From NCBI GenBank assembly GCA_036659935.1, contig JAVXBP010000002.1, positions 1 to 49,287 of the forward strand: DNA of 49,287 bases. The letters are read 5' to 3'. Numbering within the stretch: position 1 is the first letter of the stretch; every line of letters begins with the position of its first letter. Shown here in pieces: positions 3 through 49,287 of the stretch. The notes beneath the pieces are model-generated. The model worked only from the letters and a program-made list of their open reading frames with translations, had not been told where the DNA came from and did no database searches. The translations under genes and the position numbers were made by a program. Origin of the DNA: Clostridia bacterium (GTDB taxonomy: Bacteria > Bacillota > Clostridia > Christensenellales > UBA3700).

Positions 3-908
3 GTGGGACAAGCTTTCCGCATAACGTTGCAAGACGAGATTGTCAGAGTAATTCCGCCGTGCGATATCCCCGTCAAAATCGTGTATCAAGACGATGACGT
101 CGCGGTGATTGACAAGCAAAAGGGGCTTGCCGTGATATCCTCAGGCAACCATTATGGACGAAGTTTGGAAAACGCGCTCGCAAACATTTGGGGGCAATTT
201 GTCTATCGACCAGTCAATCGCCTTGACCGAGACACGTCGGGGCTTATGATTGTCGCAAAGAATCAACTCGCGCATTCTGTCTTGTCAACGTCGGGCGTAA
301 GGCGCAAATATATTGGCTTGTGTCAAGGGGAATGGAGTGGCAGCGGACAAATCGACCAGCCAATCAACAAGGTCGCTGGCGACAGTATGCGCCGACAAAT
401 CGACCAGAACGGCAAGCCTGCGCAAACGGACTTTTGCGTGTTGGCAAGCTATCTCAGCCACGGAAACGCTGTCTCGATTGTGGCTTTCGAGTTGCGCACT
501 GGGCGCACGCACCAAATTCGCGCGCATTGTCAATTTGTCGGACACCCGCTTTGCGCGGACAAACTCTATGACCCAAACGGCGAGCAAGTTTGCGACCCGA
601 ATGGAAAATTGTTGACCGAACAAGCCTTGCACAGCGCATTTGTCCAATTTCGCCACCCAATAACTGGCAAAATGTTGGAATTTGTATCCATTCCGTCTTG
701 CGTGGCGGACAGCGCTTTTGAGCAAATTGCAATGCAAATAAAATTACCGCTTGCAATCAAACCGCCAACAGCGTCGCCAATAATGCAAAATTCTTTGTCT
801 GACAATGAGTTTAATTGTCTTATGGACAGGGCTGCGTTGTCTTACGCTCAAGGTCTGTGCACAAGCGCAAAAGAGTTCAAAGAAGAACTTCGCAAGGAGC
901 GCTTTTGA
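3..908 (+). CDS. RluA-family pseudouridine synthase (5' end cut by window edge)
   Basis: ORF open from window edge. Motifs NRLDRDTSGLMIVAK (catalytic Asp) and GRTHQIRAH are typical of the RluA/RluD family. The atypical ~60-aa C-terminal tail lies between 19-bp exact direct repeats (711-729 / 899-917). Confidence 0.85.
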   Translation: MGQAFRITLQDEIVRVIPPCDIPVKIVYQDDDVAVIDKQKGLAVISSGNHYGRSLENALANIWGQFVYRPVNRLDRDTSGLMIVAKNQLAHSVLSTSGVRRKYIGLCQGEWSGSGQIDQPINKVAGDSMRRQIDQNGKPAQTDFCVLASYLSHGNAVSIVAFELRTGRTHQIRAHCQFVGHPLCADKLYDPNGEQVCDPNGKLLTEQALHSAFVQFRHPITGKMLEFVSIPSCVADSAFEQIAMQIKLPLAIKPPTASPIMQNSLSDNEFNCLMDRAALSYAQGLCTSAKEFKEELRKERF

Positions 909-930
909 GCAAATTGTCACAAATTCACTG

Positions 931-959
931 TTGACAAAAGAATAAATTTATTATATAAT
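931..959 (+). promoter_or_regulatory. sigma-A-like promoter upstream of alcohol dehydrogenase gene
   Basis: TTGACA (931-936), 17-nt spacer, TATAAT (954-959), ~75 nt upstream of ATG 1037. Confidence 0.5.
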
Positions 960-1036
960 AAAAGAATATTAATATATCAAACAATTATCAACGCTACAAA
1001 AACACCGATTTTAATTTCTGACAAAAGGGAGAAAAA

Positions 1037-2245
1037 ATGAATTTTTTTACAAAATTTTACGCGCGGTTTTTCCAAAAAGTTACATACGCGGTTATGCCGT
1101 TTATCGGTTGGAGAAAGCCACAATTGTTGGAGCTCGAACAGGGCGTTTGTGGCTTGCCACAGTTTTTGAAAGAGAACGGCTTTGGCAAAGCTTTGATTGT
1201 GACAGGGCCGACAATTCGCAAAATTGGGCTTATTGACGGGCTTTTGTCCGCTATGACCGACAGCGGAATGGACTTTGCAATTTTTGACAAAGTGCAACCG
1301 AACCCAACAATCGACAATATCGAAGAAGGCGTCAAACTCTACAACGAGCAAAAATGTTCGTGCATTATTGCGTTTGGCGGCGGCTCAAATATGGACTGCG
1401 CAAAAATAATAGGCGCGAGAATTGCCCGCCCAAAAAAGAAAGTTTGCAAAATGAAAGGCTTGCTCAAGGTCGGCAAAAATATTCCGCCGTTTTTTGCGAT
1501 TCCTACTACCGCTGGCTCGGGCAGTGAAACTACGCTTGCGGCGGTCATTTCCAATCCGCTCACTCACGAAAAATATCCAATCAACGACACGCATATCATT
1601 CCGCATTACGCATTGCTTGACCCACAATTGACGGTCGCGTTGCCACCGCTCACCACGGCGACGACGGGCATGGACGCGCTCACCCACGCGGTGGAAGCGT
1701 ATATCGGCAAAAGCAACACTCGCGAGACAACAGAAATGGCTGTCAGCGCGATAAAGCTCATTTTTTCCAACTTGCGCAAGGCGGTTGAACACGGCGACGA
1801 TATCAACGCGCGCAAAAATATGCAGGTCGCGTCTTACAAGGCTGGCGTAGCGTTTACTCGCGCTTATGTCGGCTATGTCCACGCAATCGCGCACGCGCTG
1901 GGCGGTTTCTATCAAATTCCGCACGGACTTGCGAACGCGGTTATTTTGCCGTATGTTTTGGAACGCTATGGCGAATGCATACATTATCAATTGGCAAGTC
2001 TTTCGTTTTTTGTCGGGCTGGGGACTTTTACCGCGAGCGAAAAAGCCAACGCGGATATTTTTATTCAAGCGATAAGAAATATGAATGACAGCTTTGGCAT
2101 TCCAAACAAAATTATCGGCATCAAAAAAGAGGACATTCCACAAATGGCTGAGCGCGCTTACAAAGAAGCGACGCCACTCTATCCAGTGCCAAGAATGTTC
2201 GACAAAAAAGAGTTGGAAGAAATTTTTGCGGAAATTGCAGAATAA
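1037..2245 (+). CDS. iron-containing (group III) alcohol dehydrogenase
   Basis: GGGAGA Shine-Dalgarno before the ATG. Fe-ADH signatures GGGSNMDCAK and the His-rich metal-site region YVGYVHAIAHALGG..PHG. Confidence 0.9.
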   Translation: MNFFTKFYARFFQKVTYAVMPFIGWRKPQLLELEQGVCGLPQFLKENGFGKALIVTGPTIRKIGLIDGLLSAMTDSGMDFAIFDKVQPNPTIDNIEEGVKLYNEQKCSCIIAFGGGSNMDCAKIIGARIARPKKKVCKMKGLLKVGKNIPPFFAIPTTAGSGSETTLAAVISNPLTHEKYPINDTHIIPHYALLDPQLTVALPPLTTATTGMDALTHAVEAYIGKSNTRETTEMAVSAIKLIFSNLRKAVEHGDDINARKNMQVASYKAGVAFTRAYVGYVHAIAHALGGFYQIPHGLANAVILPYVLERYGECIHYQLASLSFFVGLGTFTASEKANADIFIQAIRNMNDSFGIPNKIIGIKKEDIPQMAERAYKEATPLYPVPRMFDKKELEEIFAEIAE

Positions 2246-2345
2246 AACGCGATAAAACAATCGAATAAGGGCTTTGCAGGGCAGTCAAATATTGTGGCGG
2301 TTTTGCAAAAAAATGGGAAATTTGTATCATCAAAAGGAGAAAATT

Positions 2346-3980
2346 ATGAAAAGAAATGGCATGTGTCCGATTTGCTTTCTCAAGAAGCTTTTCAAGAAAC
2401 ACAGCAGTCCGAGCGAACTTGTCTTGGACAAACCATATTCCAACGGCGCGGCGCAAACTCCGCCAATGGGCTGGTCGAGTTGGAACACTTTCAAAAACCA
2501 TATTGACGAAAACCTCGTCTTGGAAACCGCTCGCGCAATGCAAGAAAAAGGGCTTGTCGCGGCAGGTTACAATCATATCAACCTTGACGATTGTTGGCAT
2601 TCGTCTCTGAGAGACGCGGACGGCAATTTGCAAGCCGACTTGACAAGCTTTCCGCACGGAATTCCGTCTCTTGTGACTGAGTGCAACAAGCTTGGTCTCA
2701 AGGTGGGAATCTACTCGTCCAATGGCACTCTCACGTGCGAGGACTTGCCCGCAAGCCTCGGAAACGAGGAGAGAGACGCGCTCACAATCGCGCGCTGGGG
2801 CATTGAATTTTTCAAATATGACTTTTGTCACAATGAGCTGATAAGCCGTTATGCGCCATTGGTCGAGAGTGTCACCACCACGCCAAGCGGAGAGTTTGGC
2901 GGAGTGAATATCTCGTGCGCGCAGGCTTTGCTCTATGGCAGCGCGAAACTTATGCCCGACGAGCATACTCCAAGCGGATATCACGTGTCTGGTCTTGACG
3001 ACGGTGGCGGAAAAATGGAATTTAACAACATTTTCGCGGAAGCGGACGGAGACTATGTCTTGACAATCAACGTGCGCAAAAAAGGCGAATATAAGAAGTT
3101 TTTGATGGCGGTTGTCAATGGCTCGGACAAATATTTCTTTGACTTTCCACCGCAAAAATTTTGGAATTATACCGCAAAATTCCAACAAGTCGTAAGACTG
3201 AAAAAGGGAATAAACACGCTCGCGTTGTCCAACCCTGTCCACACAAACGCCGACAGCGCAATGTTGCAATATTATATCATGGGACAGGCGCTTGCAAAGG
3301 CGTCGGCGACTGTCGCGCAAGAAAATGCGACAGCGGAAAAACCAATCATTTTCTCCATTTGCGAATGGGGGAAAAACAAGCCGTATTTGTGGGGCAAATT
3401 TGCGGGCAATATGTGGCGCACAACGGGCGATATTATGGCTTGGTGGCCACGCGTAATGAACATCTACGAAAGCACTGTTGGTCTCTGGAAATATGCTGAC
3501 AAGGGGCACTGGAATGACCCCGATATGCTCGAGGTCGGCAACGGAAAACTCACCGACAACCAAAACAAGTCGCACTTTGCGCTGTGGTGTATGCTCAATT
3601 CTCCGCTCATTCTCGGCAACGATATCAGAAATATGAGCGACGAAGTGCAGAAAATTGTCACAAATGCAAACCTTATCGCAATCAACCAGGACAGCCTTGG
3701 CAAGCAAGCGAAAAGAATCAAAACTGGGCTTGTGGATATTCTTGCAAAACCGCTCGACGGCGGAAAAGTTGCTGTTTGCGTTTTCAACAAAGGGGCGACC
3801 GCCAACGAATTTAACTTGCAAATTGCGACGCTTTGCGCGGACGAGTATTTGAATCTTGCAAAAGCAAACACTTATTGCGCTGTCGACCAATACACGGGCA
3901 AAAGCGAAAATTGCTCGCTGTTGAAAGGCAAAATGGAAGCGTATGGCAACGCTATGTTTGTGATTGCGCCACAAAAGTAA
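2346..3980 (+). CDS. GH27 alpha-galactosidase (melibiase-type)
   Basis: ORF 2274-3980; start placed at ATG 2346, preceded by AAAAGGAGAAAATT. GH27 blocks PPMGWSSWN, INLDDCW, CEWG, DMLEVGN. No obvious signal peptide. Confidence 0.85.
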   Translation: MKRNGMCPICFLKKLFKKHSSPSELVLDKPYSNGAAQTPPMGWSSWNTFKNHIDENLVLETARAMQEKGLVAAGYNHINLDDCWHSSLRDADGNLQADLTSFPHGIPSLVTECNKLGLKVGIYSSNGTLTCEDLPASLGNEERDALTIARWGIEFFKYDFCHNELISRYAPLVESVTTTPSGEFGGVNISCAQALLYGSAKLMPDEHTPSGYHVSGLDDGGGKMEFNNIFAEADGDYVLTINVRKKGEYKKFLMAVVNGSDKYFFDFPPQKFWNYTAKFQQVVRLKKGINTLALSNPVHTNADSAMLQYYIMGQALAKASATVAQENATAEKPIIFSICEWGKNKPYLWGKFAGNMWRTTGDIMAWWPRVMNIYESTVGLWKYADKGHWNDPDMLEVGNGKLTDNQNKSHFALWCMLNSPLILGNDIRNMSDEVQKIVTNANLIAINQDSLGKQAKRIKTGLVDILAKPLDGGKVAVCVFNKGATANEFNLQIATLCADEYLNLAKANTYCAVDQYTGKSENCSLLKGKMEAYGNAMFVIAPQK

Positions 3981-4125
3981 GTTCAAAAGAAGGAAAATAT
4001 GTTAGAAATGACCTTGCTCGCGGAAAGTTCGAAATAGAATAAAAAAAAGTAAGTCGCAAAAAGGACTTTGTACGCGGAAAAAGTTAAAAATAACGAAAAA
4101 TAAAAAGTGAGTGTCAGAAAAGACG
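3974..4125. repeat. degenerate tandem repeat seeded by the 3' end of the GH27 gene
   Basis: AAAAGTAAGT (includes stop TAA 3978-3980) at 3974, again at 4045, and AAAAGTGAGT at 4103. CGCGGAAAGTT / CGCGGAAAAAGTT blocks recur within the units. Period ~58-71 bp. Confidence 0.6.
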
Positions 4126-4243: not shown

Positions 4244-5599
4244 ATGGGAAAAAACTTTAGAAATTATAATAATCAAAATAGACAGAGAATTGTTGATAAT
4301 TTTGAACCGAGTGGCAACGCGGAAGATTTGCAACGCCCAATTGAAGAATTGCAATTGTTTCCTCGCACAGAAGAAGCGCTCAAAGCGGGGGCTTTTGTCA
4401 CTTTGCGCGATTTGGCGGCAAAAAGATTGTCGCAAATGTACAAGGTTCAAAATATTGGCAAAAAACAATGTATAGAAATTTCTCGCAAAATGCAAAAATA
4501 TAGTTTGAGCTTTCGAGAAGAAGAACCTGTTGTAGACCAACAAGACGGCGCTCAAGCTCAACCGAACAACGGCGCGCAAGCCCAACAAAGAGTTGGCGGA
4601 CAACCAAACGGCGAGCCAAGAGTAGGATTGCGCCCAAACACCAACAAAAGGCGCGAAGATAATGGCGCGGATAACGGCGGACAAGCGAGAGACAGCGGAC
4701 AAGTCCGCGACAACAACGGACAAGCGAGAGACAACGGACAGGCGAGAGACAACAATCGCAACCGCGACGGCAGACAAGATCGCAACCGCGACAGACAGCC
4801 GAACGGACAACAAGCTCAAGTCGCTCAAGGCGGAGCTGTCGGCGAGCCAAACAACAATGGACAAGCGAGAGACAACTTCCGCAACCGCAATGACCGCAAT
4901 GCTCGCCCAGACGGCAATCGTCCCGACCGCAACAATCGCAATGACCGCAATCAACAAGGCAGTCGCAATCAACAAAACAATCAACAAAACAACCGCAGAC
5001 AAGATGACGTCGCGCAACCAAACAATGACGCGCAAACGGAAGAATTCTTGTCGTCAGGACCGCTTACAAACCGCAATCGTCAGCTTATGCAGAGTGTCAA
5101 TCGCGGGCTGAATGACTCCCTTTCTCGTCAATATTCGGGCATGACAATCAATGAGATTATCGTCGGCAAGCGACCAAGACCGCTTCCGCCACGCCCAGAA
5201 AAAGAGTTTTTGACACCAGATAGCATTGTCAAATTTTGCCGTCAAGGCAAGTGGGGATACAAAGATTGGAAGGGCAACGTTATCATTCAACCGACTTTCG
5301 ACGAGGCTTATGGCTTCCACGAAGGGGTCGCGTGGGTGGAAAAAGACGGCAAACTCGCCTATATCAACAAGAAAGGCGACCTTTTGATTGACTATAAATA
5401 TGACGCTGCGACAAGCTTTTCGGAAGCGCGCGCAAGTGTAAGCCTTGGCGAAAAAAGCGGATATATCGACATGCAAGGCGAACCTATCGGCGAAATGGAA
5501 TATGATGTCGCGACACCGTTTTTTGACGGCAGAGCAATCGTAAGACAAGCCGACCGTTGGGGAGTTCTTACGGCAGACGGCAAAATTATGTGGCGCTAA
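4244..5599 (+). CDS. RpoA alpha-CTD-like (HhH) domain / disordered N,R,D,Q-rich repeat / WG-repeat protein
   Basis: N-terminus IEELQLFPRTEEALKAGAFVTLRDLAAKRLSQMYKVQNIGKKQCIEISRKM parallels RNA polymerase alpha C-terminal domain (IEELDLSVRSYNCLKRAGI..VRNLGRKSLEEV). The middle carries GQARDN/NRNDRN repeats. The C-terminus has GKWGY..G..VI..YD..F.EG.A repeats (WG/KWG repeat type). All three parts are in one frame. Confidence 0.7.
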   Translation: MGKNFRNYNNQNRQRIVDNFEPSGNAEDLQRPIEELQLFPRTEEALKAGAFVTLRDLAAKRLSQMYKVQNIGKKQCIEISRKMQKYSLSFREEEPVVDQQDGAQAQPNNGAQAQQRVGGQPNGEPRVGLRPNTNKRREDNGADNGGQARDSGQVRDNNGQARDNGQARDNNRNRDGRQDRNRDRQPNGQQAQVAQGGAVGEPNNNGQARDNFRNRNDRNARPDGNRPDRNNRNDRNQQGSRNQQNNQQNNRRQDDVAQPNNDAQTEEFLSSGPLTNRNRQLMQSVNRGLNDSLSRQYSGMTINEIIVGKRPRPLPPRPEKEFLTPDSIVKFCRQGKWGYKDWKGNVIIQPTFDEAYGFHEGVAWVEKDGKLAYINKKGDLLIDYKYDAATSFSEARASVSLGEKSGYIDMQGEPIGEMEYDVATPFFDGRAIVRQADRWGVLTADGKIMWR

Positions 5600-7511: not shown

Positions 7512-7518
7512 AATGTTG

Positions 7519-7828: not shown

Positions 7829-10087
7829 ATGGAAGAAAAAAAGTGTTGCCACGGCAACGGAAAAAATATAGACGGGCTTGCAAAACAAGCTTGTCATTGT
7901 CACGAAAAAGTTGACGATAACAAAGTAGTTTGTCACTGCGACGAAAAGACAAGTGACAACAAAGAAGTTTGTCACTGTCACGAAAGTGGCAAAGAAAAGC
8001 AATCAGAGACGAGTTCTTGCTGCGCGAGTTCTCACAAGCCGTCGGCTCAAGTTTCGGCTTGCGGTTGCGGTGGCGAACACTCAAGTCAATCGGCTTGCGG
8101 TTGTGGCGGTTTGCATTCTGACGGCGGAAAGCGCGCGAATATGATTATGCTCGCCAAAATTCTGGTGTCGCTCGGCTTTCTTATTCTTGGCTTTCTCGAT
8201 TGGCATTCGATTGGGCAAAATGTAAAATGGTTGATGGTTTTCCACTATTTTAACCCTGCTTGGATAGCGGTGGTTTTGTGCGGAATTCCTATTTTTGCAG
8301 GCGCGATAAATTCGCTCGCCAACAAAAAAATCACCGCGTCGGTGCTTATCAGCGTGGCGATGTTGTCGGCGATTGTGTTGGAAATCGTAGGCTTTTTCTA
8401 CCCTATTGACGGGGACGGCGGACACACGCACAGTTATGTTTTTGTGGCTGGCGAAGTCGCGTTTTTGATGGCGATTGGCGGCGCGATAGAAGATTGGACG
8501 GTCGGAAAGACCAAGGCAGGCATTGCGCGCCTTGTCGGTTTGATTCCAAAAGAGGCATTTGTCAAAGTGGGCGACAGGTTGGAAAAACGCTCGCTTGCCG
8601 ACATCAAAATTGGTGACATTGTTGTCGCGAAAGCTGGCGAAATGATTGCTGTTGACGGCGAAATTATATCAGGAAGCAGTTCGGTTGACGTCTCGTCGGT
8701 TACGGGCGAATATGTGCCTGCGGAATTGACTGTCGGCGACAAAGTTTACGGCGGAACTTTCAGCAAAACGGGCGCGATAGAAATCAGAGTGGAAAAGCTT
8801 TTGCAAGACATGACAATCGCCAAAATGGCTGAGCTTGTCGAAGAAGCGCAAGGCAAAAAAGCCCCGATATCGCGCGTCGCGGACAGGTGGGCGAGCGTGA
8901 TTGTGCCGACTGCCATTGGGCTGTCGATTGTGGTCGGTTTGGTGGCAGGGCTTGCGTTCAAGACGTCAGTTGTTGAGGCGATTATTCGTTCGATAACGGT
9001 GCTGATTGTCTTTTGTCCGTGCTCGTTGGCGTTGGCGACTCCGACGGCGATTGCGGCAGGACTTGGCAATTCTGCGCGCAACGGCGTGCTTGTCAAAAGT
9101 GGCGCGAGCCTCGAAGTTTTGAGCAAGGCGGACACAATTTGTTTCGACAAAACGGGCACGTTGACGGAAGGCGCGCTGACGGTTTGCGACGTCGTTGTTG
9201 ACGGCGTGGAAGAAAATGAGCTGTTGAAACTTTGCGCCAGCGTCGAGAATTATTCTGAGCACCCACTCGCGGCGGCGGTCGCGCGTAAGGCGGAAGGCTT
9301 GGGAATCTATCAATCGAGCGATATCGAAATTTTGCAAGGCGTGGGCGTTGTCGGCAAGGCGAATGGAAAAGAAATCAAGCTTTTGTCATTTGCGCAAGCG
9401 GTCAAATCAAAGTGTAATCTCGACAAATTCGCCACGCAAGCTGACGAGTTGTTGGCGCAAGGCAAGACGCTTGTTGTCGCGCTTGTTGACGGAGCGACGG
9501 CAGGGCTGTTGGCGTTTTCTGACACGATAAGGCAGGACGCTAGGCAAGTCATCGACACGCTCAACAAGGGCGGTTACGCCACGATTATGCTCACGGGCGA
9601 CAACGAGAAAAGCGCTCGCTACGTCGCGGAAAAGTGCGGAATTCAACAAGTCAAATTTGGACTGTTGCCACAAGAAAAATTGCAGGTCATAAAGGACTTG
9701 CAGGCAGGCGGACACAAGGTTTGCATGGTCGGCGACGGCATCAACGACGCTCCGTCGCTCAAGCTGGCTGATTGTAGCCTTGCGATGGGCGCGCTCGGCA
9801 GTGATATTGCGATAGAAACCGCCGATATGGCAATTTTGAACAGCGATATGAACAAAATCGTTGACACGCTCGCGCTTTCGAAACGCGCGCTTGGCACAAT
9901 CAAACGCAATATTATCCTTGCAATGTCAATCAATCTTGTGGCGATAATTCTCTCGATGTTTGGAATTCTTACGCCAATGAGTGGGGCGATTGTGCACAAC
10001 GTTACGTCAATTCTTGTAGTGCTGTCGTCAGCAATGTTGTTGAGAAAAGGAAAATCGCAAAAAAAGCAAGGTGGCGAAGCAAAATAA
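7829..10087 (+). CDS. P1B-type heavy-metal-translocating ATPase with Cys/His-rich repeat N-terminus
   Basis: Motifs CPC (VFCPCSLALATP), DKTGTLT, SEHPLA, GDGINDAP. The N-terminus has CHCHE/CHCDE and SACGCGG repeats instead of a ferredoxin-like CxxC HMA domain. Confidence 0.9.
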   Translation: MEEKKCCHGNGKNIDGLAKQACHCHEKVDDNKVVCHCDEKTSDNKEVCHCHESGKEKQSETSSCCASSHKPSAQVSACGCGGEHSSQSACGCGGLHSDGGKRANMIMLAKILVSLGFLILGFLDWHSIGQNVKWLMVFHYFNPAWIAVVLCGIPIFAGAINSLANKKITASVLISVAMLSAIVLEIVGFFYPIDGDGGHTHSYVFVAGEVAFLMAIGGAIEDWTVGKTKAGIARLVGLIPKEAFVKVGDRLEKRSLADIKIGDIVVAKAGEMIAVDGEIISGSSSVDVSSVTGEYVPAELTVGDKVYGGTFSKTGAIEIRVEKLLQDMTIAKMAELVEEAQGKKAPISRVADRWASVIVPTAIGLSIVVGLVAGLAFKTSVVEAIIRSITVLIVFCPCSLALATPTAIAAGLGNSARNGVLVKSGASLEVLSKADTICFDKTGTLTEGALTVCDVVVDGVEENELLKLCASVENYSEHPLAAAVARKAEGLGIYQSSDIEILQGVGVVGKANGKEIKLLSFAQAVKSKCNLDKFATQADELLAQGKTLVVALVDGATAGLLAFSDTIRQDARQVIDTLNKGGYATIMLTGDNEKSARYVAEKCGIQQVKFGLLPQEKLQVIKDLQAGGHKVCMVGDGINDAPSLKLADCSLAMGALGSDIAIETADMAILNSDMNKIVDTLALSKRALGTIKRNIILAMSINLVAIILSMFGILTPMSGAIVHNVTSILVVLSSAMLLRKGKSQKKQGGEAK

Positions 10088-10201
10088 CCGCTCAACGCTC
10101 GCAAAATGCGCGTGAAAAAAGAAAAAGTGCTCGCAAAAGAAGAAAAGCGCGACCAAGCTGATAAATTTTTGAATAATAATTTGAAATATGGCAAAAACAT
10201 T

Positions 10202-10428: not shown

Positions 10429-10547
10429 ATCGGCAATGTGGCGGTTTTATTTTTAACGGAAAAATAAAAGCATATTTTAATGTTGTATAAGACATTTTTG
10501 CGATATTTTTAATCAAAAGTGGTGGTTGCTATTTTTTGCAAGAATGG

Positions 10548-15168: not shown

Positions 15169-15312
15169 ATCGACAAAAACTCGACAAAAACTCGTTAAAA
15201 AATCGTTACAAATTGTGAGAAAATCACATTGTATATAAAACAAAATAAAATATTGGGACTGTTGAGACTTCAACGCTCGGCATTTTCCAAAACAAAAGGA
15301 AGGTAGAAAATT

Positions 15313-24259: not shown

Positions 24260-24510
24260 GTCGAACCTTCCTTTTGCGTGACAGCGACGCGGAGTATATA
24301 GTATTGTAATAATTATTATAATATAGGGGAGTTACACTTTGTATTATACGGCATCGAAAGCTTGCCGTCAATGCAAAAGCTCACGCGCGCGCAATTTTTT
24401 GTTGAGTTGTTGATTGCGGTCAAATTTTCTTGTTTGTACAATTTGGATTGTGGTCATTTTCTTGTTTGTCAAAAACTGATTGCAGTTTTTTTGGACAAGG
24501 TTGATAGTAA

Positions 24511-25125
24511 TTAATTTTCTTGTTTGTCAACGAGTGGTTGTGGTTGAGTTTTTTTGTTTGTCAGTGGCAAAAAAGTAATTTTTGCCTTGCAAAGACTGAT
24601 ATTCCGTTGTTGTTTCCAAGTGGAAACTTTGCGCTCAAGAAAGAAAATATCGGCGGCTTCCCACATAAAAACCCACGCGATTATGTCGAGAATCTCGTTT
24701 GTTATCGCGCTTGCCCAGAAGTGATTCGCAAGCAACATAAGCAAGAGAAATGCCACCCCAGCGAGCAACATAAAAGCCGCGAGAATAACGTCGCGTTTGA
24801 TATTTTGTTTTTCGGCGATATAACATTCGTAATAATGCGTCTTTATCGCTTGCGCATAGACTTGCTTTTCTTCGTCGTCAATCACATTGCTGTGAATCTG
24901 CAAGTGAATGTCCTCTTTGTAGCGCGCTGGCTTGAGCGCTTTGTCGAGAAAATTGGACGCGTCCTCGGACAGCGTTTGCGCCTCGTGATAAGAAAAGGGC
25001 GAAATAAAATTGCTATCGTCCAAAACGGTCATATTGAGCAAAAGCAAGCCGTTTTCGTCTCGTTGCTCGACGGACTTTTCCACTTCTTTGTTCATTGCGA
25101 CAATTCTTTGTATGCCTCTAAACAT
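24511..25125 (-). CDS. hypothetical membrane protein (soluble N-terminal half plus 2 TM)
   Basis: AAGGAG SD 9 nt before ATG 25125. TM segments VILAAFMLLAGVAFLLLMLLA and ILDIIAWVFMWEAADIFF. No family recognised. Confidence 0.6.
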   Translation of the reverse strand: MFRGIQRIVAMNKEVEKSVEQRDENGLLLLNMTVLDDSNFISPFSYHEAQTLSEDASNFLDKALKPARYKEDIHLQIHSNVIDDEEKQVYAQAIKTHYYECYIAEKQNIKRDVILAAFMLLAGVAFLLLMLLANHFWASAITNEILDIIAWVFMWEAADIFFLERKVSTWKQQRNISLCKAKITFLPLTNKKTQPQPLVDKQEN

Positions 25126-25463
25126 AAGCAAAATCTCCTTGTGTATAGCTTTATTATACTACAATCTCGAATATAAGAAAGCTATTTTGAACAAAATATC
25201 CTAAAATTTGCGTGTTTTGTGGCGAGATTGTTTTGCTAATAATAAATTTGTAGAATACAATCAACGAAAATATCTCAAAGAAAGTCGAAAGGGCGTCGAA
25301 AGAAAGTCGGAAACAAGCCAAAAACACGCAATAATGGAAAAAACAAAATTATTTACACATTATTTACACAATTTTAATGTTTTTTTTGACTTTTATAGAT
25401 ATAATAAGTATATGCTCTTGTAAGGCACGCTATCAATACATAAATCTTGCAAGTTGCAACAAA

Positions 25464-25577
25464 AAACGCTCGCGAAAAAGTTTTGAAATGTTGCAAAGAA
25501 AGTTAGCAAAACGCTCGCAAAAAAACTAGTGAAAAAGTTTTTAAATGTTGCAAAGAAAGTTAGCGAAAAAACTTACA
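25464..25577. repeat. ~57-bp tandem duplication in divergent promoter region
   Basis: Exact 22-mer AAATGTTGCAAAGAAAGTTAGC at 25486-25507 and 25543-25564. Each copy is preceded by ACGCTCGC..GAAAAAGTTTT. Confidence 0.7.
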
Positions 25578-25651
25578 AAAAATTCAATATTAACGCTCGG
25601 CGCGCGCAATCGCGACTGAGCAAAACTTAAAAGAAATCTCGGAGGGATATT

Positions 25652-27109: not shown

Positions 27110-27271
27110 TTACAATTGTTACGCAAGTTGTGTTGTGACAAGCAACTTTAACAATGTTTACGCAAGCTTTGTTTTCGACAAGTGACTTACACAAAGCAAA
27201 TTACAATTGTTACGCAAGTTGTGTTGTGACAAGTAGCAAATTGCAACGTTTACGCAAGCTTTGTTTTCGAC
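27110..27271. repeat. ~91-bp tandem duplication that includes the last 22 nt (with stop) of the PI-PLC-like gene
   Basis: Exact 33-mer at 27110-27142 = 27201-27233. Exact 24-mer at 27156-27179 = 27248-27271; the stop codon complement TTA is at 27250-27252. Confidence 0.85.
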
Positions 27272-30204: not shown

Positions 30205-32829
30205 ATGTACAGAAAATCTACTGACGAGCTGTTGGAAAGATTCCACAGCAACCGCGAAACGGGCTTGTCGCAAGAACAAGTCATCAATTCGCGTGGCGAG
30301 TTTGGAGAAAACAAACTGCAAAGCAAAAAAAGACAGAGCCTTTTTGTTAAATTTTTGTTGCAATTCAAAGATATTCTTTTGATAATCTTGATAATCGCAG
30401 CAATCGTTTCGCTTTGTATTGACCCGAAAGAATGGTTCGAGAGCGCAATAATTTTCTTTGTCGTAATCGTAAACGCTATTTTGGGCGTATTCCAAGAGGA
30501 CAAGGCGGAAAAATCACTTGACGCGCTCAAAAAAATGTCGTCGCCGACTTGCAAAGTTCGTCGTGACGGGCTTGTGCAAGAACTCAGCACTGACCAACTT
30601 GTTGCAGGCGACATAATTTTGGTTGAGGCGGGCGACTTTATTCCTGCCGACGCGAGACTTTTCGAATGCTCCAACTTGCAAGTCGAAGAATCAGCGCTGA
30701 CGGGCGAATCGCTTGCGGTTACAAAAAATGTAGCGGTTCTCGAGGGCGAAAATTTGCCACTCGGCGACAGAAAAAATATGTTGTTTTCGTCAACGTTTGT
30801 CACAAACGGACATGGCGAAGCGATAGTTACCGCGGTTGGAATGCAAACGGAAATCGGCAAAATCGCTGGTATGTTGTTGGAAAAAGACGACTCGCAAACT
30901 CCTTTGCAAATCAAACTTGCCCAAGTCGGCAAGGCTATTGGTTTGATTGCGATTATCATTTGCGCGGTTGTTTTCGTAATGGAAAAATTGAACGGACTGA
31001 CTTGGCTTGACGCTTTCAAGACGGCAGTCGCGTTGGCGGTCGCAGCTATCCCAGAAGGACTTGCCACCGTTGTAACCATCTCTCTTGCGATTGGCGTTCA
31101 AAAAATGTCCAAACAAAACGCAATTGTCAAGAAGTTGCCTGCGGTAGAAACGCTTGGTTGCACAAGCATAGTTTGCTCGGACAAGACTGGCACTTTGACA
31201 CAGAACAAAATGACTTGCACAGAACTTTTCGATGGTGAACAACTTCCGCTTGCAAACGGAATGACATTGGACGAGAAAAAAGTTCAATTGTTGCAATATT
31301 TTGCGCTTTGTTGCGATGCGAAAATTGACATTGTCGACGGCGTAGAAAAACGCCTTGGCGACCCGACAGAAACAGCCCTTATCGAGATAAACAACAAGCT
31401 CGGCAAGGCTTTTGGCGATATCAAACGCGTGGGCGACTTGCCTTTCGACAGCGAAAGAAAGTTGATGACCGTTGTGCTGCAAGTGGGCAAAAAGTTCATT
31501 TCTGTCACAAAGGGCGCGCCTGACAATATGTTCAAATTGAGCGTGCCATCGCCGTTTATTGAGCAAGCGACCAACGCCAACACAAATATGGCGGAAAGAG
31601 CGCTGAGAGTGCTCGGGCTTGGCATAAAAGAATTCGACAAAATGCCTGTCGTTGACGAAACGCTGGAAAAAGATATGACTTTCTTGGGCTTGATTGGAAT
31701 GATTGACCCAAGCCGTCCAGAAGTCAAAGTGGCAATCGAAGAAGCAAAGAAAGCGGGCATTCGCCCAATTATGATTACTGGCGACCACATAACGACCGCC
31801 ACCGCTATCGCTCGCGAACTCGGAATTTTCCGCGAGGGCGACCGCGCTATTACGTCGGAGCAACTCGAAAAAATGTCCGACAAAGAACTCGACGCGCATA
31901 TCGAAGAATTCTCAGTTTACGCTCGTGTCGCGCCAAAAGACAAGGTTAGAATTGTCGAGGCGTGGCAGAAAAAAGATATGGTTGTCGCTATGACTGGCGA
32001 CGGTGTCAATGACTCGCCTGCGCTCAAAAAAGCCGATATCGGTTGCGCAATGGGCATAACTGGCACGGACGTTTCCAAGGAAGCGGCGGATATGATTCTT
32101 GTTGATGACAACTTTGCGACAATTATCAACGCGGTTGAACAAGGTCGTGGCATTTACGCCAACGTCAAAAAGTGCGTGCGCTATTTGCTATCGTCCAACT
32201 TTGGCGAAGTGCTCACAATTTTTGTCGCGTCAATCATCTCGATGTTTATGACGGACGCGTTGTGGGGCGTGCCACTCTTGCCGATACACTTGTTGTGGAT
32301 AAACCTTATCACTGACTCGTTGCCTGCATTCGGGCTTGGAATGGACTCTGCGACCAAGAACATTATGTTGGAAGCTCCTCGACCAAAAAAGGAAGGCTTC
32401 TTTGCAAACGGTATGATATACAAAATCTTGTTCGAAGGTATTATTTTCGGCGCGCTTTCTATATCGGCGTTTACAATCGGCACAGTTCTCGAAGGAAGTC
32501 TTGCGATTGGTCAAACAATGACATTCTTGACATTGTCAACAATTCAACTTTTCCACTCGTTCAACGTCAAGTCTGACAGAACGCTTTTCTGCAAAGAAAC
32601 ATTCAACAACAAGTTCCTCAATATGTCATTCCTTGCGGGCTTTGCGTTGCAAATTCTTGTAATCTATATCCCAGGAGTCAACACAATGTTCAAGCTTGCT
32701 CCTTTGAGTATTGCAAATCTTGCGACCTGCATAGGGCTTGCGGCGATTGTAATTGTGTTTGTTGAGATATTCAAATTGATAGCCAACGTTGCGGCAAAAA
32801 AGAAACAAGCGCAAATCGTTATCAAATAA
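30205..32829 (+). CDS. P2-type cation-transporting ATPase (Ca2+/Mn2+-type)
   Basis: CSDKTGTLTQNKMT, TGDHITTA, TGDGVNDSPALKKADIG; 10-TM layout. Start at ATG 30205 after GAGAGGAAAAA. The ORF-track GTG at 30154 lies inside the terminator. Confidence 0.9.
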   Translation: MYRKSTDELLERFHSNRETGLSQEQVINSRGEFGENKLQSKKRQSLFVKFLLQFKDILLIILIIAAIVSLCIDPKEWFESAIIFFVVIVNAILGVFQEDKAEKSLDALKKMSSPTCKVRRDGLVQELSTDQLVAGDIILVEAGDFIPADARLFECSNLQVEESALTGESLAVTKNVAVLEGENLPLGDRKNMLFSSTFVTNGHGEAIVTAVGMQTEIGKIAGMLLEKDDSQTPLQIKLAQVGKAIGLIAIIICAVVFVMEKLNGLTWLDAFKTAVALAVAAIPEGLATVVTISLAIGVQKMSKQNAIVKKLPAVETLGCTSIVCSDKTGTLTQNKMTCTELFDGEQLPLANGMTLDEKKVQLLQYFALCCDAKIDIVDGVEKRLGDPTETALIEINNKLGKAFGDIKRVGDLPFDSERKLMTVVLQVGKKFISVTKGAPDNMFKLSVPSPFIEQATNANTNMAERALRVLGLGIKEFDKMPVVDETLEKDMTFLGLIGMIDPSRPEVKVAIEEAKKAGIRPIMITGDHITTATAIARELGIFREGDRAITSEQLEKMSDKELDAHIEEFSVYARVAPKDKVRIVEAWQKKDMVVAMTGDGVNDSPALKKADIGCAMGITGTDVSKEAADMILVDDNFATIINAVEQGRGIYANVKKCVRYLLSSNFGEVLTIFVASIISMFMTDALWGVPLLPIHLLWINLITDSLPAFGLGMDSATKNIMLEAPRPKKEGFFANGMIYKILFEGIIFGALSISAFTIGTVLEGSLAIGQTMTFLTLSTIQLFHSFNVKSDRTLFCKETFNNKFLNMSFLAGFALQILVIYIPGVNTMFKLAPLSIANLATCIGLAAIVIVFVEIFKLIANVAAKKKQAQIVIK

Positions 32830-32833
32830 CAGT

Positions 32834-32945
32834 AAGCGAAAAGCTCAATTGTTGCAAATGACACAACGCTAAATAAGCGCAAATGTTATAAACGATATAA
32901 TACAAAAGCGAAAAGCTCAATTGTTGCAAATGACACAACGCTAAA
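32834..32945. repeat. 72-bp tandem duplication downstream of the P2 ATPase
   Basis: Exact 40-mer AAGCGAAAAGCTCAATTGTTGCAAATGACACAACGCTAAA at 32834-32873 and 32906-32945. The flanks resemble the gene's last 26 nt. Confidence 0.85.
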
Positions 32946-33142
32946 AAAGCGAAATGTTGCAAACAACAAAACAAAAAACAAGCGCGTGTCGAGCAAACCT
33001 TGACGCGCGCGATAGAAAATTAATATACAAAGTATAGAAAACATATTTTTCGACCAAACTATTTGTAATGTTTGAGCGCTCAAAAAAAGTCGGCTTGTCA
33101 CAACAGGTCGACTTTTGCGTTTAACAAATATTGTGTGGGAGA

Positions 33143-33298: not shown

Positions 33299-33452
33299 AA
33301 AATTAAAAATTCGAAAATTACTCGAGAAGTAAAAAAATTGAAAGCTACTCAAAAGTTTGTAATAATGCAAGGGGATAGCGCTTGGAAAGTTTATAGAGCC
33401 AAAAAATGAAAACAGCTCAAAAAATGAAATAAACTCAAAAATTGAGAACAGC

Positions 33453-33833
33453 TCAAAACGCTTGTGGCAAAAGTTGTCCCAGTGTGGTTGATGTGGCAAC
33501 GCCGTCACTTCCGCGACAAATTATCACAAAGTTATCACTGACAAATTCGCTCGCAAATTGACGACAAATTCCGCACGGAAAAGGTGTTCTTCCGTCAGAG
33601 ACAATCGCCATAGCGAGCCAATTGTGTGACCCGTGAGCGATTGCGGAAGTCATCGCCACTCTCTCGGCGCATATCGTCGCGCCAAAACTTGCGTTCTCGA
33701 CGTTGCAACCGACAAAAATATCGCCATTGCTGTCGAGCAGGGCGCAACCAACGGAATAATGCGAATATGGACAATGCGCCAAAGGCAACATTTGTGTCGC
33801 TTGCGCGAGCAAGTCTGTCAAGTCAAGTTCCAT
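33453..33833 (-). CDS. cdd: cytidine deaminase
   Basis: Zinc motifs CAERVA and PCGICRQ; 126 aa. Confidence 0.92.
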   Translation of the reverse strand: MELDLTDLLAQATQMLPLAHCPYSHYSVGCALLDSNGDIFVGCNVENASFGATICAERVAMTSAIAHGSHNWLAMAIVSDGRTPFPCGICRQFASEFVSDNFVIICRGSDGVATSTTLGQLLPQAF

Positions 33834-34721: not shown

Positions 34722-34724
34722 TGA

Positions 34725-35606: not shown

Positions 35607-35655
35607 ATTGTACCTCTTTTTAATATATTTGCTATTTAATTGGTTTGCTATTTAT

Positions 35656-35746
35656 TAACTAATCTACTTACTTACTAACTAACTTGCTTACTAACTAACT
35701 AACTTACTTACTTACTTACTAACTAACTTACTTACTAACTTACTTT
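35656..35746. repeat. tetranucleotide (TAAC/TTAC)n microsatellite between nanK and nanA
   Basis: TAACTAATCTACTTACTTACTAACTAACTTGCTTACTAACTAACTAACTTACTTACTTACTTACTAACTAACTTACTTACTAACTTAC. Confidence 0.9.
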
Positions 35747-37386: not shown

Positions 37387-37388
37387 AA

Positions 37389-38770: not shown

Positions 38771-38955
38771 TTGCAGTTGGCAAATCACTTGTGTTGCGTA
38801 AAAGTAATCAAACGGCGCAATCAGAATTGCAGTTGGCAAATCACTTGTGCGCTTGCAATCGAACTTGCAAAACAATCTTGCAATCGTCAAATCACTTGTG
38901 TTGCGTAAAAGTAATCAAACGGTACAATCAGAATTGCAATCGTCAAATCACTTGC
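38771..38955. repeat. tandem array (~53-bp subunits, 107-bp super-period) seeded by the 3' end of the aldose-epimerase-like gene
   Basis: CAAATCACTTG at 38781, 38837, 38888 and 38944 (the last is the gene's ..QVI-stop). The 51-nt blocks 38781-38831 and 38888-38938 differ only at the 2-nt CG/TA position. Confidence 0.85.
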
Positions 38956-39980: not shown

Positions 39981-40133
39981 GTCCACAAAGTTGTAGTGAA
40001 GTTGCGTAAAAACTGTAGTGAAGTTATGCAAGATTGCAGTGAAGTTGTGCAGTAATGTAGTGAAGTTATGCAAGATTGTAGTAAAGTTGCGTAAAAATTG
40101 TAGCGAAGTTGCGTAAAGTGCGGTGAAGTTGTT
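39981..40133. repeat. seven tandem 21-22-bp units abutting the stop codon of the CE4-like gene
   Basis: Unit starts at 39993, 40015, 40036, 40057, 40078, 40100 and 40122 (GTAGTGAAGTTRYGCRNRANT). Units 2 and 4 are identical. The last unit runs into stop complement TTA 40134-40136. Confidence 0.85.
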
Positions 40134-41357: not shown

Positions 41358-41586
41358 TTTCGCCGTCCTACAAACCTTTCTATTAGTATGGTTGAGAAGG
41401 GGCTTTTTATCACAGAAAAAGCGAAAAACTGCATACCACTCGACATTTTTGCGAGTTTGGGCTGCAGTTTGTTTGTTTTTTGATTGCAAATATTTTTGGC
41501 TTTTTGACAAGAATTGTTATGTTTTTTGTCGCGATTGCTAGGTTTTTGCGACCTTGTTTTGCAACTTTTGATAGCAATTTATTTGA

Positions 41587-42477
41587 TTATTTTTTGCCTT
41601 TGTTTTGCATTTCGTCCAAGATAAGTCGAGCGTAAGCGTGCGCGATATTTTCTCCGCTCGCTTTTTCAATTCCGCCAAAAAACGCGTTGGAGTTGACTTC
41701 GCATATCACGGGCTTGTTGTTTTCGCCGAACAAAACGTCGATTCCGCAATAGTCCAAGTCAAGGATAGTCGCGACTTTTTCGCACAATTCTCGCCATTCT
41801 TGCGACAATACAAATTCGTTTGCGCTGCCGCCCAAGCCAAGGTTGGAGCGGAAGTCTTTGTTCGACTGTCTCAGCATTGCGGCTTTGACTTTTTTGCCGA
41901 CGACAATGACGCGCACGTCTCTGCCAAAAGAAGTGGCAATCGCTTGTTGGACAAGATAAGGCTTGCCGACTTCTTGACGGACAAGTTCTTCCAACTGCGC
42001 GCGATTGGACGCGAGAAATACGCCCGTGCCGAGCGACCCACAACAATCTTTGACCACTATCGGATAGCCACCGACAAGTTCTTCCACTTTGTCATAATAT
42101 TCCGCGGACGGTTGGCAATCGTGATTGTAGCACATAAGTCCGCTCACGGTGCGTGGCATTGGAATGTCGCAACCAGAAAGCTTGATATAAGTTTCCATTT
42201 TGTCGTCGCAAAGCTCAATCGCCTTGTGCGAGTTGAAAACTCTTACGCCGAGTTTTTCGAGCATAGCCGAGGCATATTTGTCCTTGTCAAGAAAAATGCA
42301 AAAGTCGCAATCGGCAAACTGCGATTGGATATCTTTTCCGTCGACGAAAGCGGCGTTTGAGTTGGCAAGAACGCGCATATCGACGCCAAGATAGGTCAGT
42401 TCGCTCGCAAGTCTTTCTGACTGATAAATAGTATTTTGTGTGAGATAAAAAGAATTTGTAAGGATAATGCCTTTCAT
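41587..42477 (-). CDS. RimK-family ATP-grasp alpha-L-glutamate ligase-like protein
   Basis: Collinear with E. coli RimK: PIVVK..GSLGTGVFL, YLVQQAI..GRDVRVIVVG, KDFRSNLGLGGSA, GIDVLF...PVICEVNSN. Confidence 0.85.
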   Translation of the reverse strand: MKGIILTNSFYLTQNTIYQSERLASELTYLGVDMRVLANSNAAFVDGKDIQSQFADCDFCIFLDKDKYASAMLEKLGVRVFNSHKAIELCDDKMETYIKLSGCDIPMPRTVSGLMCYNHDCQPSAEYYDKVEELVGGYPIVVKDCCGSLGTGVFLASNRAQLEELVRQEVGKPYLVQQAIATSFGRDVRVIVVGKKVKAAMLRQSNKDFRSNLGLGGSANEFVLSQEWRELCEKVATILDLDYCGIDVLFGENNKPVICEVNSNAFFGGIEKASGENIAHAYARLILDEMQNKGKK

Positions 42478-47293: not shown

Positions 47294-47357
47294 AAAACAT
47301 CACAATCGTTGTACAGGTCGCTCGAAATGCGACTTTGCGACAGAAAAAGGAGAACAT

Positions 47358-47648
47358 ATGAAAGCAATCGTATCCGTTATCGGAAAGGACAAGAAAGGAA
47401 TTATTGCCAAGGTTTCGACCGCGTTGTATGAGATGGATATCAATATCGAAGACATATCTCAGACAATTTTGCAGAATTATTTTACTATGATTATGGCGGT
47501 TGAGACGCAAGACAACAGCCCCAACTTCGAGCAAATAACTCTCAATCTCTTGGCTTTGGGCGAAAAATTGGGCGTGGAAATTCACATTCAATCACAGAGT
47601 ATTTTTGACAGTATGCACAAGATAAGTAACTCCAATCAGGAATTGTGA
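47358..47648 (+). CDS. ACT domain-containing protein (UPF0237 type)
   Basis: [36 protein letters not shown]... Forms the conserved pairing with the downstream UPF0210 gene. Confidence 0.85.
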
Positions 47649-47655
47649 GGTAGAA

Positions 47656-49005
47656 ATGTATACAAATAAAGAAATTCTTGAGACAATCAATATGGTTTCT
47701 CACCAACATTTGGACGTGAGAACTATCACTATGGGCATATCGTTGCTCGATTGTATATCAGAAAGCAAACAACGCGTTTGCGACAAAATTTATGACAAAA
47801 TTATGTCCAAGGCGAGCAATCTCGTCAAGGTCGGCGAAGATATATCACGCGAAATCGGCGTGCCAATTGTCAACAAGAGAATATCAGTTACGCCTGTCAG
47901 CATTATCAGCGCGGCAAGCAAGGGACATTTGGAAATAATTCGCACTCTCGACAAAATCGCGGCGGAGATTGGCATTGACTTTCTCGGCGGTTACTCTGCG
48001 CTTGTTCACAAGGCTATGTCGAGCTACGAAGAAGAATTTATTCGCAGCATTCCGGAAGCTTTGTCCACGACAAAAAAGATATGCGCGTCAGTCAACGTGG
48101 CGACCTCGAAAGCGGGCATCAATATGGACGCCGTCGCTTTGATGGGGAAAATCGTCAAAGAATGCGCTTATCTCACTCGCGACACGGACAGCTCGGCTTG
48201 CACAAAACTTGTTGTTTTTGCAAACGCAGTTGAGGATAACCCTTTTATGGCGGGCGCTTTTCTCGGAATCGGGGAAGACGACGCGGTCATCAACGTGGGC
48301 GTTTCTGGGCCTGGCGTTGTCAAATCAGCGCTCGAAAAAGTTCACGGCGACCTGACGGAAGTCGCGGAATGTATCAAACAAACAGCTTTCAAAATCACTC
48401 GCGTAGGGCAACTTGTGTGCAACGAAGCAAGCAAGCGCCTTGGCGTTTCGAGTGGAATTGTTGACCTTTCGCTTGCGCCGACACCAGTTGTTGGCGACAG
48501 TGTGGCGCATATTTTGGAAGAAATCGGCTTGGAAAGCGTCGGAGCTTATGGCACAACCGCAACGCTTGCTATGCTCAATGACGCAGTCAAGAAAGGCGGC
48601 ATTATGGCGAGCAGTCACGTCGGCGGACTGAGCGGAGCTTTTATCCCTGTCTCAGAAGACGCTGGTATGATTCGCGCGGCGGAATGTGGCGCGCTTAATA
48701 TGGAAAAGTTGGAAGCTATGACCGCGGTTTGCTCGGTTGGGCTCGATATGATTGCCATTCCGGGCGACACAACGGCGGACGTAATCTCGGCGATTATTGC
48801 GGACGAGATATCAATCGGCGTGGTCAATGTCAAAACCACAGCCGTGCGCGTTATTCCTGTTTGGGGCAAAAAAGCGGGCGAGCACGCGGAGTTTGGCGGA
48901 CTGCTTGGACACGCGCCAATTATGAAAATAAACACTTATTCGCCGTCGAAATTTATCGCGCGCGGTGGTAGAATTCCTGCGCCGTTGCACAGCAATAAGA
49001 ACTAA
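47656..49005 (+). CDS. UPF0210 / DUF711 (PFL-like) family protein
   Basis: ~450 aa with [24 protein letters not shown]. Canonical partner of the ACT protein. Confidence 0.85.
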
Positions 49006-49287
49006 CAAAATCAACAAAACAAACTTAACCAACGAACAAATTTAACTAGTAAACTAGCTTAATCAACGAACTAGCTAAAATAATAGAACAAGCTAAACAA
49101 ACAAATTTAATCAAATGACTAGCTAAAATAAAAAGCAAACTTAATCAACAAAAAAGCTTAATTAAAAAGCAAACTTAATCAACGGACTAGCTAAACTAAC
49201 AAAAAAGCTTAATTAAAAAGAACTAACAAAATTATTGCGCGCGGTGGCAGGTTACCTGTTCCGTTGCGCGGTAATAAGAATTAAAGG
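49006..49287. repeat. G-poor nested-repeat spacer followed by a second, diverged copy of the UPF0210 3' end
   Basis: AAAAAGCAAACTTAATCAAC x2, AAAAAAGCTTAATTAAAAAG x2, ACTAGCTAAA x4. Region 49232-49284 matches 48954-49006 at 42/53 nt (hand alignment), in frame and with its own stop. Confidence 0.85.

Follow-up and report, generated by a model that had tools for sequence, protein, structure and literature searches.

Bacterial minisatellites, or variable-number tandem repeats (VNTRs), are arrays of head-to-tail units that are specific to each locus, differ between strains by whole units and keep the reading frame inside genes. Arrays with these properties, built from units of 11-57 nt, occur throughout a 49,287-bp stretch of DNA (the window), which is one entire contig of a metagenome-assembled genome (MAG). 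Its source is an uncultured, spore-forming Clostridia species whose closest relatives are Christensenellales-like. The arrays differ from typical VNTRs in that they take up about a fifth of the intergenic bases, many are very degenerate or patchwork, and several take in the final codons of the upstream gene together with its stop codon. They are locus-specific minisatellites rather than a new class of element; what is unusual here is the array load and the systematic recruitment of coding tails. The initial annotation of this DNA knew of no described element class with such a signature, which was too strong a statement given locus-specific VNTRs and MIRUs (mycobacterial interspersed repetitive units), the closest described analogue.

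Like the arrays studied here, MIRU-VNTRs are minisatellites in the operon spacers of co-oriented genes that touch gene boundaries and vary between strains; Supply et al. (1997/2000) are said to have described MIRUs as overlapping the flanking stop and start codons. All MIRUs belong to a single dispersed family; they have a consensus in common and an internal frame that preserves translational coupling. The units here differ from locus to locus; no shared consensus was found among the arrays, and no coupling reading frame in the UPF0210-spoU array. According to a 2025 review (PMC12548453), MIRUs insert at start codons and carry a short, coupled reading frame. Microhomology-mediated tandem duplications, which copy tens to ~100 bp between short repeats and are reversible (PMC8639346, PNAS 2021), provide a second comparison. 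Their intragenic survivors are biased to lengths divisible by three and the intergenic ones are not; in yeasts these duplications are rare and subclonal, and in E. coli their detection is a further 20-fold lower (PMC8639346). The same frame filter is seen here, but in this one bacterial lineage the duplications are old, have become fixed and have expanded into arrays. TAACTGA heptamer repeats, abundant between genes in Beggiatoaceae, Cyanobacteria and Bacteroidetes (PMC4679880), are also lineage-restricted short direct repeats in spacers that contain stop-codon triplets; they consist, however, of one fixed heptamer, mostly just upstream of starts and proposed to be a binding site, whereas here many unrelated units lie mostly after stops. 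Diversity-generating retroelements likewise place a copy of a gene 3' end downstream of the gene; in contrast, the copies here are only 12-57 nt long, show no adenine-specific differences and are accompanied by no reverse transcriptase among the Pfam matches.

Our evidence at the species level amounts to ~60 kb in total, all of it from short-read MAGs: the window, two NCBI MAGs and Logan run assemblies. Most of the window is also covered by four further assemblies of this species that are ~99% identical to it, and four relatives whose UPF0210 proteins are 85-88% identical served for comparison. No relatives at intermediate distance came out of the homologue searches: the closest further aldose epimerase is 48% and the closest further UPF0210 88% identical. 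When the lineage-specific CE4-like protein was used to scan a genome collection whose representatives do not include this species, the closest named genomes were Christensenellaceae and Clostridia MAGs at ~50% identity. Arrays cover 18-20% of intergenic bases in this species and 0-3% in the four relatives, a density at least sixfold (about ten times) higher, and in-frame intragenic arrays are also commoner here. Tandem Repeats Finder (TRF) identified 13 intergenic arrays with a score of at least 50 and periods of 11-57 nt; across all arrays, repeat periods range from 11 to 107 nt. The period was a multiple of three in 15 of 19 intragenic arrays compared with 5 of 20 spacer arrays (P = 0.001).

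The UPF0210-spoU spacer retains a record of how such an array replaced a short gap. The two genes are 7-12 nt apart in all four relatives and ~280-300 nt apart here (L005 and the window; the corresponding figure for L004 is inflated by an N-gap). The order is functional tail E, an array of ~190-240 nt, a decayed copy E', the ancestral ribosome-binding site and the spoU start, so that E' holds the ancestral position beside the ribosome-binding site. As annotated, the tail copy is real and includes the stop: E and E' are identical at 45 of 57 positions (in translation, IIARGGRLPVPLRGNKN plus stop versus a 17-residue peptide), with 12 mismatches of mixed types. Because the UPF0210 coding tail aligns with homologue C-termini, the downstream copy was derived from the tail, and the head-to-tail junction AAGAACTAACAAAAT, present twice, is a mark of tandem copies of that tail. 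Every frame through the array is broken by stops, and no open reading frame (ORF) of at least 20 codons crosses it. The aldose epimerase gene has the same polarity: its C-terminus, MQVI plus stop, aligns with homologue ends, and thus the tail is ancestral and the array copies are derived from it. The fourfold repeat reported at this gene was confirmed. The first copy consists of the last 12 coding nt including the stop, and the 11-mer CAAATCACTTG occurs four times against 0.06 expected; the stop is intact in two of the four copies and changed from TGA to TGC in the other two.

The initial annotation had proposed that the last nucleotides of a coding sequence reappear downstream at ten or more loci, with the stop codon included at no fewer than six. 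For each gene, the final 40 nt were compared with the spacer that follows it, with the spacers of all other genes and with dinucleotide shuffles. Of 30 3' ends, six scored higher with their own spacer than with any mismatched one (binomial P = 4e-4), namely those of the 2-TM, PI-PLC-like, P2 ATPase, aldose epimerase, rimK-like and UPF0210 genes, and four of these six tails also exceeded 99% of shuffles. Among 5' ends, 1 of 27 beat all mismatched spacers, via a low-complexity match. The 3'-versus-5' contrast by itself is not significant (Fisher P = 0.11), and arrays also lie in divergent spacers. The tails of GH27, P1B ATPase (in the window), ntpI, CE4 and cdd scored at chance. The repeats lie within about a base of where they had been placed. 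Tail copies stand at five of the proposed loci (PI-PLC, 2-TM, P2, aldose epimerase and UPF0210), are borderline at rimK, and fall away at GH27, P1B (in the window), ntpI and CE4. The stop codon lies within the copy at PI-PLC, aldose epimerase, UPF0210 and the second rluA copy only; at 2-TM, P2 and rimK the copy stops 3-4 nt short of it, and the match at GH27, also counted among the six, is no better than chance.

Individual loci differ in how the tail is used (Table 1). At the PI-PLC-like gene, the exact 24-mer pair (block B, coding tail plus stop) was found as described, identity reaching 26 nt in the gene sense with the stop included, and the own-spacer score was 44 compared with a maximum of 20 for mismatched spacers. 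A 33-mer (block A) also occurs twice, the spacers between blocks have diverged, and the array is the same in strain L016. The 2-TM gene ends in three 32-nt units, the first of which is its last 32 coding nt; the 17-mer repeats are exact and a third copy exists, but the copied stretch adjoins the stop and leaves it out (score 34 versus a mismatched maximum of 23; shuffle P = 0.005). Similarly, the P2 ATPase tail has a copy identical at 20 of 23 positions with one gap (shuffle P = 0.01), but this ends 4 nt short of the stop; all units of the array start with AAGCG, with Y units 96% identical to one another and X units resembling the tail. The rimK-like match, already flagged as weak, came top among mismatched comparisons, yet its shuffle P was 0.065. 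For GH27, tail and spacer match over 8 nt at best, which mismatched and shuffled controls equal, and one reported coordinate was off by 1. The ntpI array does begin 1 nt past the stop and the CE4 array does end 2 nt from it, as reported, but the coding tail is not significantly part of the former and lies outside the latter. The annotation missed an array across the cdd stop, another that spans the spoU stop in strain L004, and strong arrays in purely divergent (5') spacers. The array between the 2-TM gene and htrA is an example, and hence arrays are not specific to 3' ends.

Table 1. Arrays, tail copies and shared sequence in the window
Feature	Coordinates	Strand	Composition	Detection or status
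PI-PLC-like gene, patchwork array	27110..27271	-	24-mer B 27248-27271 = 27156-27179; 33-mer A 27110-27142 and 27201-27233	Repeat family D12
2-TM protein, three 32-nt units	24424..24545	-	Units 24514-24545 (coding), 24456-24487 and 24424-24455; 17-mer 24514-24530 = 24456-24472, third copy at 24424; stop 24511-24513	Repeat family D13
P2 ATPase, tail and alternating-unit array	32804..32984	+	Tail 32804-32829	TRF; repeat family D8
Aldose epimerase, 56/107-nt array	38771..38954	-	First copy 38943-38954	TRF score 187
UPF0210-spoU	48949..49284	+	Tail E 48949-49005; 17/34-nt array 49006-49227; decayed copy E' 49228-49284
rimK-like tail and imperfect 21-nt downstream copy	41550..41612	-		Borderline
GH27 tail and two similar downstream 10-mers	3973..4112	+	Tail AAAAGTAAGT	Weak
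P1B ATPase tail, stop and ~40 nt downstream	10050..10130	+		One copy in window, three in L020
ntpI-ntpK spacer, period-11 array	15170..15213	+	Array proper 15170-15205	TRF 3.3 copies, score 51
CE4-like gene, period 21/42 array	39991..40131	-	Stop 40134-40136	TRF score 170
cdd, period-18 array across stop	33400..33458	-	Stop 33453-33455	TRF 3.3 copies, score 83
Divergent spacer 2-TM gene/htrA	25459..25582	.	57-nt unit x2.1; no stop codon either side	TRF score 174
TACT/TAAC-rich array between ROK and nanA	35619..35745	-	ROK stop 85 nt away; nanA start 12 nt away	TRF
rluA, 19-nt direct repeats around insert X	711..916	+	Repeats 711-729 and 898-916; 168-nt insert X 730-897
19-nt core TACAATTnTTACGCAAnTT	27111-27129, 27202-27220 (PI-PLC); 39999-40017, 40084-40102 (CE4)

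The arrays vary between strains in the way expected of VNTRs. The comparison of copy number at orthologous loci that the annotation had called for showed whole-unit differences between ~99%-identical strains, and nearly all indels longer than 5 nt fell into three classes: whole array units (17, 34 or 64 nt, and 11 nt at ntpI), in-frame intragenic events, and events of 152-206 nt with direct repeats at their ends. The UPF0210 arrays vary by units of 17 and 34 nt, the CE4 array of L005 differs by a 64-nt indel (about three 21-nt units) and the cdd array of L019 by a 17-nt unit, and L025 has one unit fewer at ntpI. At the P1B ATPase gene, where the annotated blocks are at chance level in the window, strain L020 carries 206 extra nt made up of copies E1, E2 and E3 of a ~70-nt unit that covers the tail, the stop and ~35-40 nt beyond it. 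Three units in L020, compared with one in the window, show that the duplication process acts at a locus that looks weak in the window. In the aldose epimerase, CE4 and UPF0210 arrays, 5-9% of aligned sites differ, compared with ~1% at third codon positions, and the ROK-nanA array shows 11 mismatches to L016 plus a scaffold gap. Within the latter array, positions 35652-35745 consist of TAAC/TTAC-type tetramers that read (TAAG/TTAG)n on the sense strand of the flanking genes, with stop codons in all three frames.

Several variable sites lie outside the tail copies. A 152-nt stretch of the rpsT-csoR spacer (7296-7447) is absent from L020, with imperfect direct repeats GGAAAAGGATTTTGTTTTTTAT and GGAAAAGTTTTTTAT at its borders. 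Strain-variable tandem repeats lie in frame within genes at 4678-4755, 7883-7985, 22109-22257 and 41143-41226; the P1B ATPase shows an 84-nt strain difference in its repeat-rich N-terminal region, and the GH2 protein has 848 or 863 residues depending on the strain. An 84-nt indel in the CE4-like gene was considered as a tandem duplication and rejected; the 6-nt repeat TCGTTG bounds it. Microhomology at unit borders (AAGCG at P2, TCGTTG at the CE4 indel, the imperfect repeats at the 152-nt indel) is suggestive only. Most of the original junctions have eroded, but strains are seen to have both gained and lost sequence.

Arrays occupy 25% of the bases in spacers that separate co-oriented genes; for convergent spacers the share is 29%, for divergent ones 15%. 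Seven to eight of 12 first arrays after a stop begin at it or within 6-12 nt, between -22 and +12 nt, where uniform placement predicts 0.9-4.1 such starts (P = 1e-5 to 5e-3, depending on the promoter space excluded). None of these reaches to within 10 nt of a start codon.

The rluA locus, where an exact 19-mer had been reported twice, differs in kind from the other arrays. The repeat is present twice, none being expected by chance, although the second copy lies 1 nt from the annotated coordinate. The 187-nt event is a presence/absence polymorphism: strain L015 has an empty site (L015 1342-1360) in which position 729 is joined directly to 917. RluA of L015 (P0164) ends in SAFEQIVTNSLLTKE followed by the stop, and every homologue is equally short; the insertion gives the window strain a C-terminus 51 residues longer, the second repeat providing the TGA stop (906-908). 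The insert is open in one frame only, and its peptide is homologous to the C-terminal, toxin-binding part of RelB-family antitoxins. It has no inverted repeats at its ends, and no second copy was present in ~300 kb of sequence examined. The insert is a captured gene fragment with a target duplication, as a template switch out to a distant template and back would leave.

We consider it likely that these features reflect lineage-specific slippage and template switching filtered by selection, with the survivors straddling stop codons. Replication slippage and microhomology-guided template switching would repeatedly duplicate stretches of 10-200 nt, most of which selection would clear. Duplications would survive in free spacer DNA, inside genes where they keep the reading frame, and across stop codons. 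A stop-straddling duplication would be tolerated because the first copy ends the protein normally and the second is 3' untranslated sequence only; one that straddles a start would create a spurious upstream start. Given that ancestral spacers were short, as at UPF0210-spoU in the relatives, a tolerated duplication would almost have to include the gene tail, and by a simple count 65-100% of tolerated 40-90 nt duplications necessarily cross the stop where no more than 60 nt of spacer are free. Once seeded, an array would grow or shrink by whole units and diverge, leaving a decayed tail copy downstream, and an occasional switch to a distant template would have given rluA its RelB-like fragment and 19-nt duplication. 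At PI-PLC and P2, exact blocks alternate with fillers that have diverged, a patchwork that fits serial template switching. The arrays are most likely a neutral by-product of frequent copying slips; both this neutrality and the molecular mechanism of duplication are what we infer from the pattern, whereas the data show directly the arrays, their restriction to the lineage, their variation between strains, the ancestral condition of UPF0210-spoU and of the aldose epimerase C-terminus, and the intragenic frame bias. The annotation had offered a slippage or template-switch scar at gene ends as one reading; array density, whole-unit indels and patchwork structure agree with it, but the process is not confined to gene ends, since arrays also occur in divergent spacers and in frame within genes.

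A number of observations weigh against this account. The concentration of arrays at stops persists after the 70 nt upstream of starts are excluded (P ~0.002-0.005), and the sense strand of the arrays is often A-rich and G-poor. The exact PI-PLC 24- and 33-mers lie between diverged fillers, which could mean constraint or gene conversion, and the PI-PLC and CE4 arrays have the 19-nt core TACAATTnTTACGCAAnTT in common. The PI-PLC, P2 and 2-TM arrays are identical in the one strain pair available, indicating that instability is specific to particular arrays. At rluA, the RelB-like donor was not found. The evidence is limited to the ~60 kb of this species noted above. The tight clustering at stops, the exact PI-PLC blocks and the G-poor composition leave room for a duplication process that may be nucleated at, or prefer, stop sites, or for secondary use of some arrays.

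That the arrays are functional 3' untranslated or termination elements, such as unstructured, G-poor Rho loading sites after the stop, or intergenic insulators, we regard as unlikely. The excess of array starts at stops would suit such a role, as would the scarcity of clean hairpin terminators, which the annotation correctly described as few and which lie outside the arrays: none of the arrays contains an intrinsic terminator hairpin with a U tract, and true terminators are found elsewhere (e.g., 27052-27087 and 21540-21570). Two arrays are nearly structureless on folding, and C exceeds G on the sense strand at CE4 (0.30/0.07), UPF0210 (0.17/0.08) and 2-TM (0.22/0.10). This composition fits a Rho site at these three loci, ntpI and rimK, but not elsewhere: G exceeds C in the GH27 and ROK arrays, and the two are about equal at aldose epimerase and PI-PLC. 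When eight arrays were folded and compared with shuffled sequences, seven z-scores lay between -1.9 and +0.9 and that of the P2 array was -2.25, revealing no convincing structure, and scans for terminator and promoter consensus sequences were uninformative. The arrays have no clear motif family in common and occur in divergent spacers; several gain or lose whole units, and differ at 5-9% of sites, when strains 99% identical are compared. Termination at the array within the ACT-UPF0210-spoU operon would cut off spoU. The functional reading put forward in the annotation is not supported by these data.

Footprints of small insertions at gene 3' ends, either of a miniature mobile element or with long, variable target duplications of the kind that IS1630 and IS1634 make, are likewise improbable as a general explanation. 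The rluA locus is a real presence/absence insertion with a 19-nt duplication, and the UPF0210 layout (E, insert, E') resembles one; nevertheless, an insertion with a target-site duplication and an empty-site allele was seen at rluA only, where the insert is a fragment of an ordinary gene rather than an element. Elsewhere the inserted material is locus-specific and itself tandem-repetitive, and the duplicated lengths vary from 12 to ~70 nt. Terminal inverted repeats surround neither the rluA insert nor any array in the window, and no transposase, integrase, reverse transcriptase or Cas protein is among its Pfam hits. The annotation had also named a known repetitive extragenic palindrome (REP) or miniature inverted-repeat transposable element (MITE) family as an alternative. 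The arrays show neither the inverted repeats or stable hairpin nor the dispersed copies of such families; only local repeat families are present in the window, and array-versus-array scores are weak and short.

A more active version of the duplication process, in which duplication and template switching are nucleated at stop codons, the products serve as unstructured 3' spacers and C-termini are rewritten, as by the RelB-like tail of RluA, seems to us quite unlikely. It could be triggered by stalled replication at sites of ribosome release and RNA polymerase pausing, or be driven by an enzyme of its own. If true, such a process would be a previously undescribed engine of innovation at gene 3' ends.

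It is less probable still that some arrays are operator arrays for regulators of downstream sugar-utilisation genes. The CE4 and aldose epimerase arrays are indeed located upstream of the genes for aldose epimerase and the sialidase-nan functions, and the 8-mer TTACGCAA occurs 10 times in the window, nine of them within three arrays (among them 38794-38801 and 38901-38908). A binding motif or a common origin may underlie TTACGCAA and the core TACAATTnTTACGCAAnTT shared by PI-PLC and CE4, and PI-PLC unit A contains the palindrome ACAATTGT. Yet TTACGCAA was picked after the arrays had been viewed, its counts are inflated by duplication within arrays, and it is absent from most of them; moreover, the PI-PLC array sits in a convergent spacer with no downstream gene, and the CE4 array is about three units shorter in one strain.

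Chance similarity in A/T-rich, low-complexity spacers, or artefacts of short-read MAG assembly, would be a very improbable explanation of the whole. GH27, P1B (in the window) and rimK are at or near chance, as are the ntpI, CE4 and cdd tails. Contigs, including the window, and scaffold gaps of all assemblies often end within arrays. In MAG GCA_036658715.1, 100-N scaffold gaps inside arrays have overlapping sequence on both flanks, and are thus mis-joins that inflate spacer lengths; the sites concerned are L004 9531-9630, L025 3029-3128 and several in L016 and L020. In one MAG the gene for a WG-repeat protein is interrupted at its repeat, where a scaffold gap lies. The exact 19-, 24- and 33-mers and the fourfold 11-mer are, however, far above chance, as is the success of six tails against all mismatched spacers, and the independent assemblies listed above show these architectures again, which excludes chance and artefact for the core loci. 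Template and variable repeats of a diversity-generating retroelement, or off-target CRISPR-type integrations, are effectively refuted: a downstream 3'-end copy has the template-repeat layout and repeat-filler-repeat resembles spacer integration, but reverse transcriptase and Cas are missing from the Pfam hits, the E/E' mismatches are of all kinds rather than adenine-specific, periods span 11-107 nt and the fillers are themselves repeated.

The window has a G+C content of ~45% overall and ~30% in spacers. Its gene content indicates that this gut-type species forages on host glycans: regions 21713-24259, 27250-29806 and 33855-39827 encode GH2, GH27, a GH29 fucosidase, a sialidase with nanE, a ROK kinase, nanA, aldose epimerase and the PI-PLC-like protein. 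Pfam matches include a germination protease, a V-type ATPase operon, a sialic-acid cluster, several glycoside hydrolases and two P-type ATPases; Rfam and tRNA scans of the window returned a tRNA-Ser only. A CsoR-like metal repressor gene (7559-7819, +) upstream of the P1B ATPase suggests a copper-export pair. Longest-ORF calling misses or miscalls this gene and two other small ones, a Cro/C1-type helix-turn-helix gene (10548-10754, -) and, in the gap from the P2 ATPase to cdd, an ORF of 51 residues that has a ribosome-binding site (33143-33298, +). The 90-codon ORF at 10519-10791 (+), antisense to the helix-turn-helix gene, and the ORF at 33098-33508 (-) were rejected as spurious. An array in the distant relative L001 (2990-3076), whose CE4 homologue is 55% identical, was set aside as different in kind: it is a triple small hairpin, ACTATGCGTGTAATAGT, 60 nt past the stop.

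These results show that a single bacterial lineage can bear a minisatellite load well above that of its relatives, with the stop codon as a safe harbour where duplications can start. The arrays add hundreds of bases to an operon, UPF0210-spoU, that is tightly spaced in relatives, and protein ends and lengths are occasionally changed: RluA has been extended, and the genes for the P1B ATPase, GH2 and CE4 vary in frame. They break short-read assemblies and scaffolds, and so affect MAG quality, and they are ready markers for strain typing. Should the high rate stem from a replication or repair function that was lost or altered, this lineage would offer a natural model of mutagenesis by tandem duplication.

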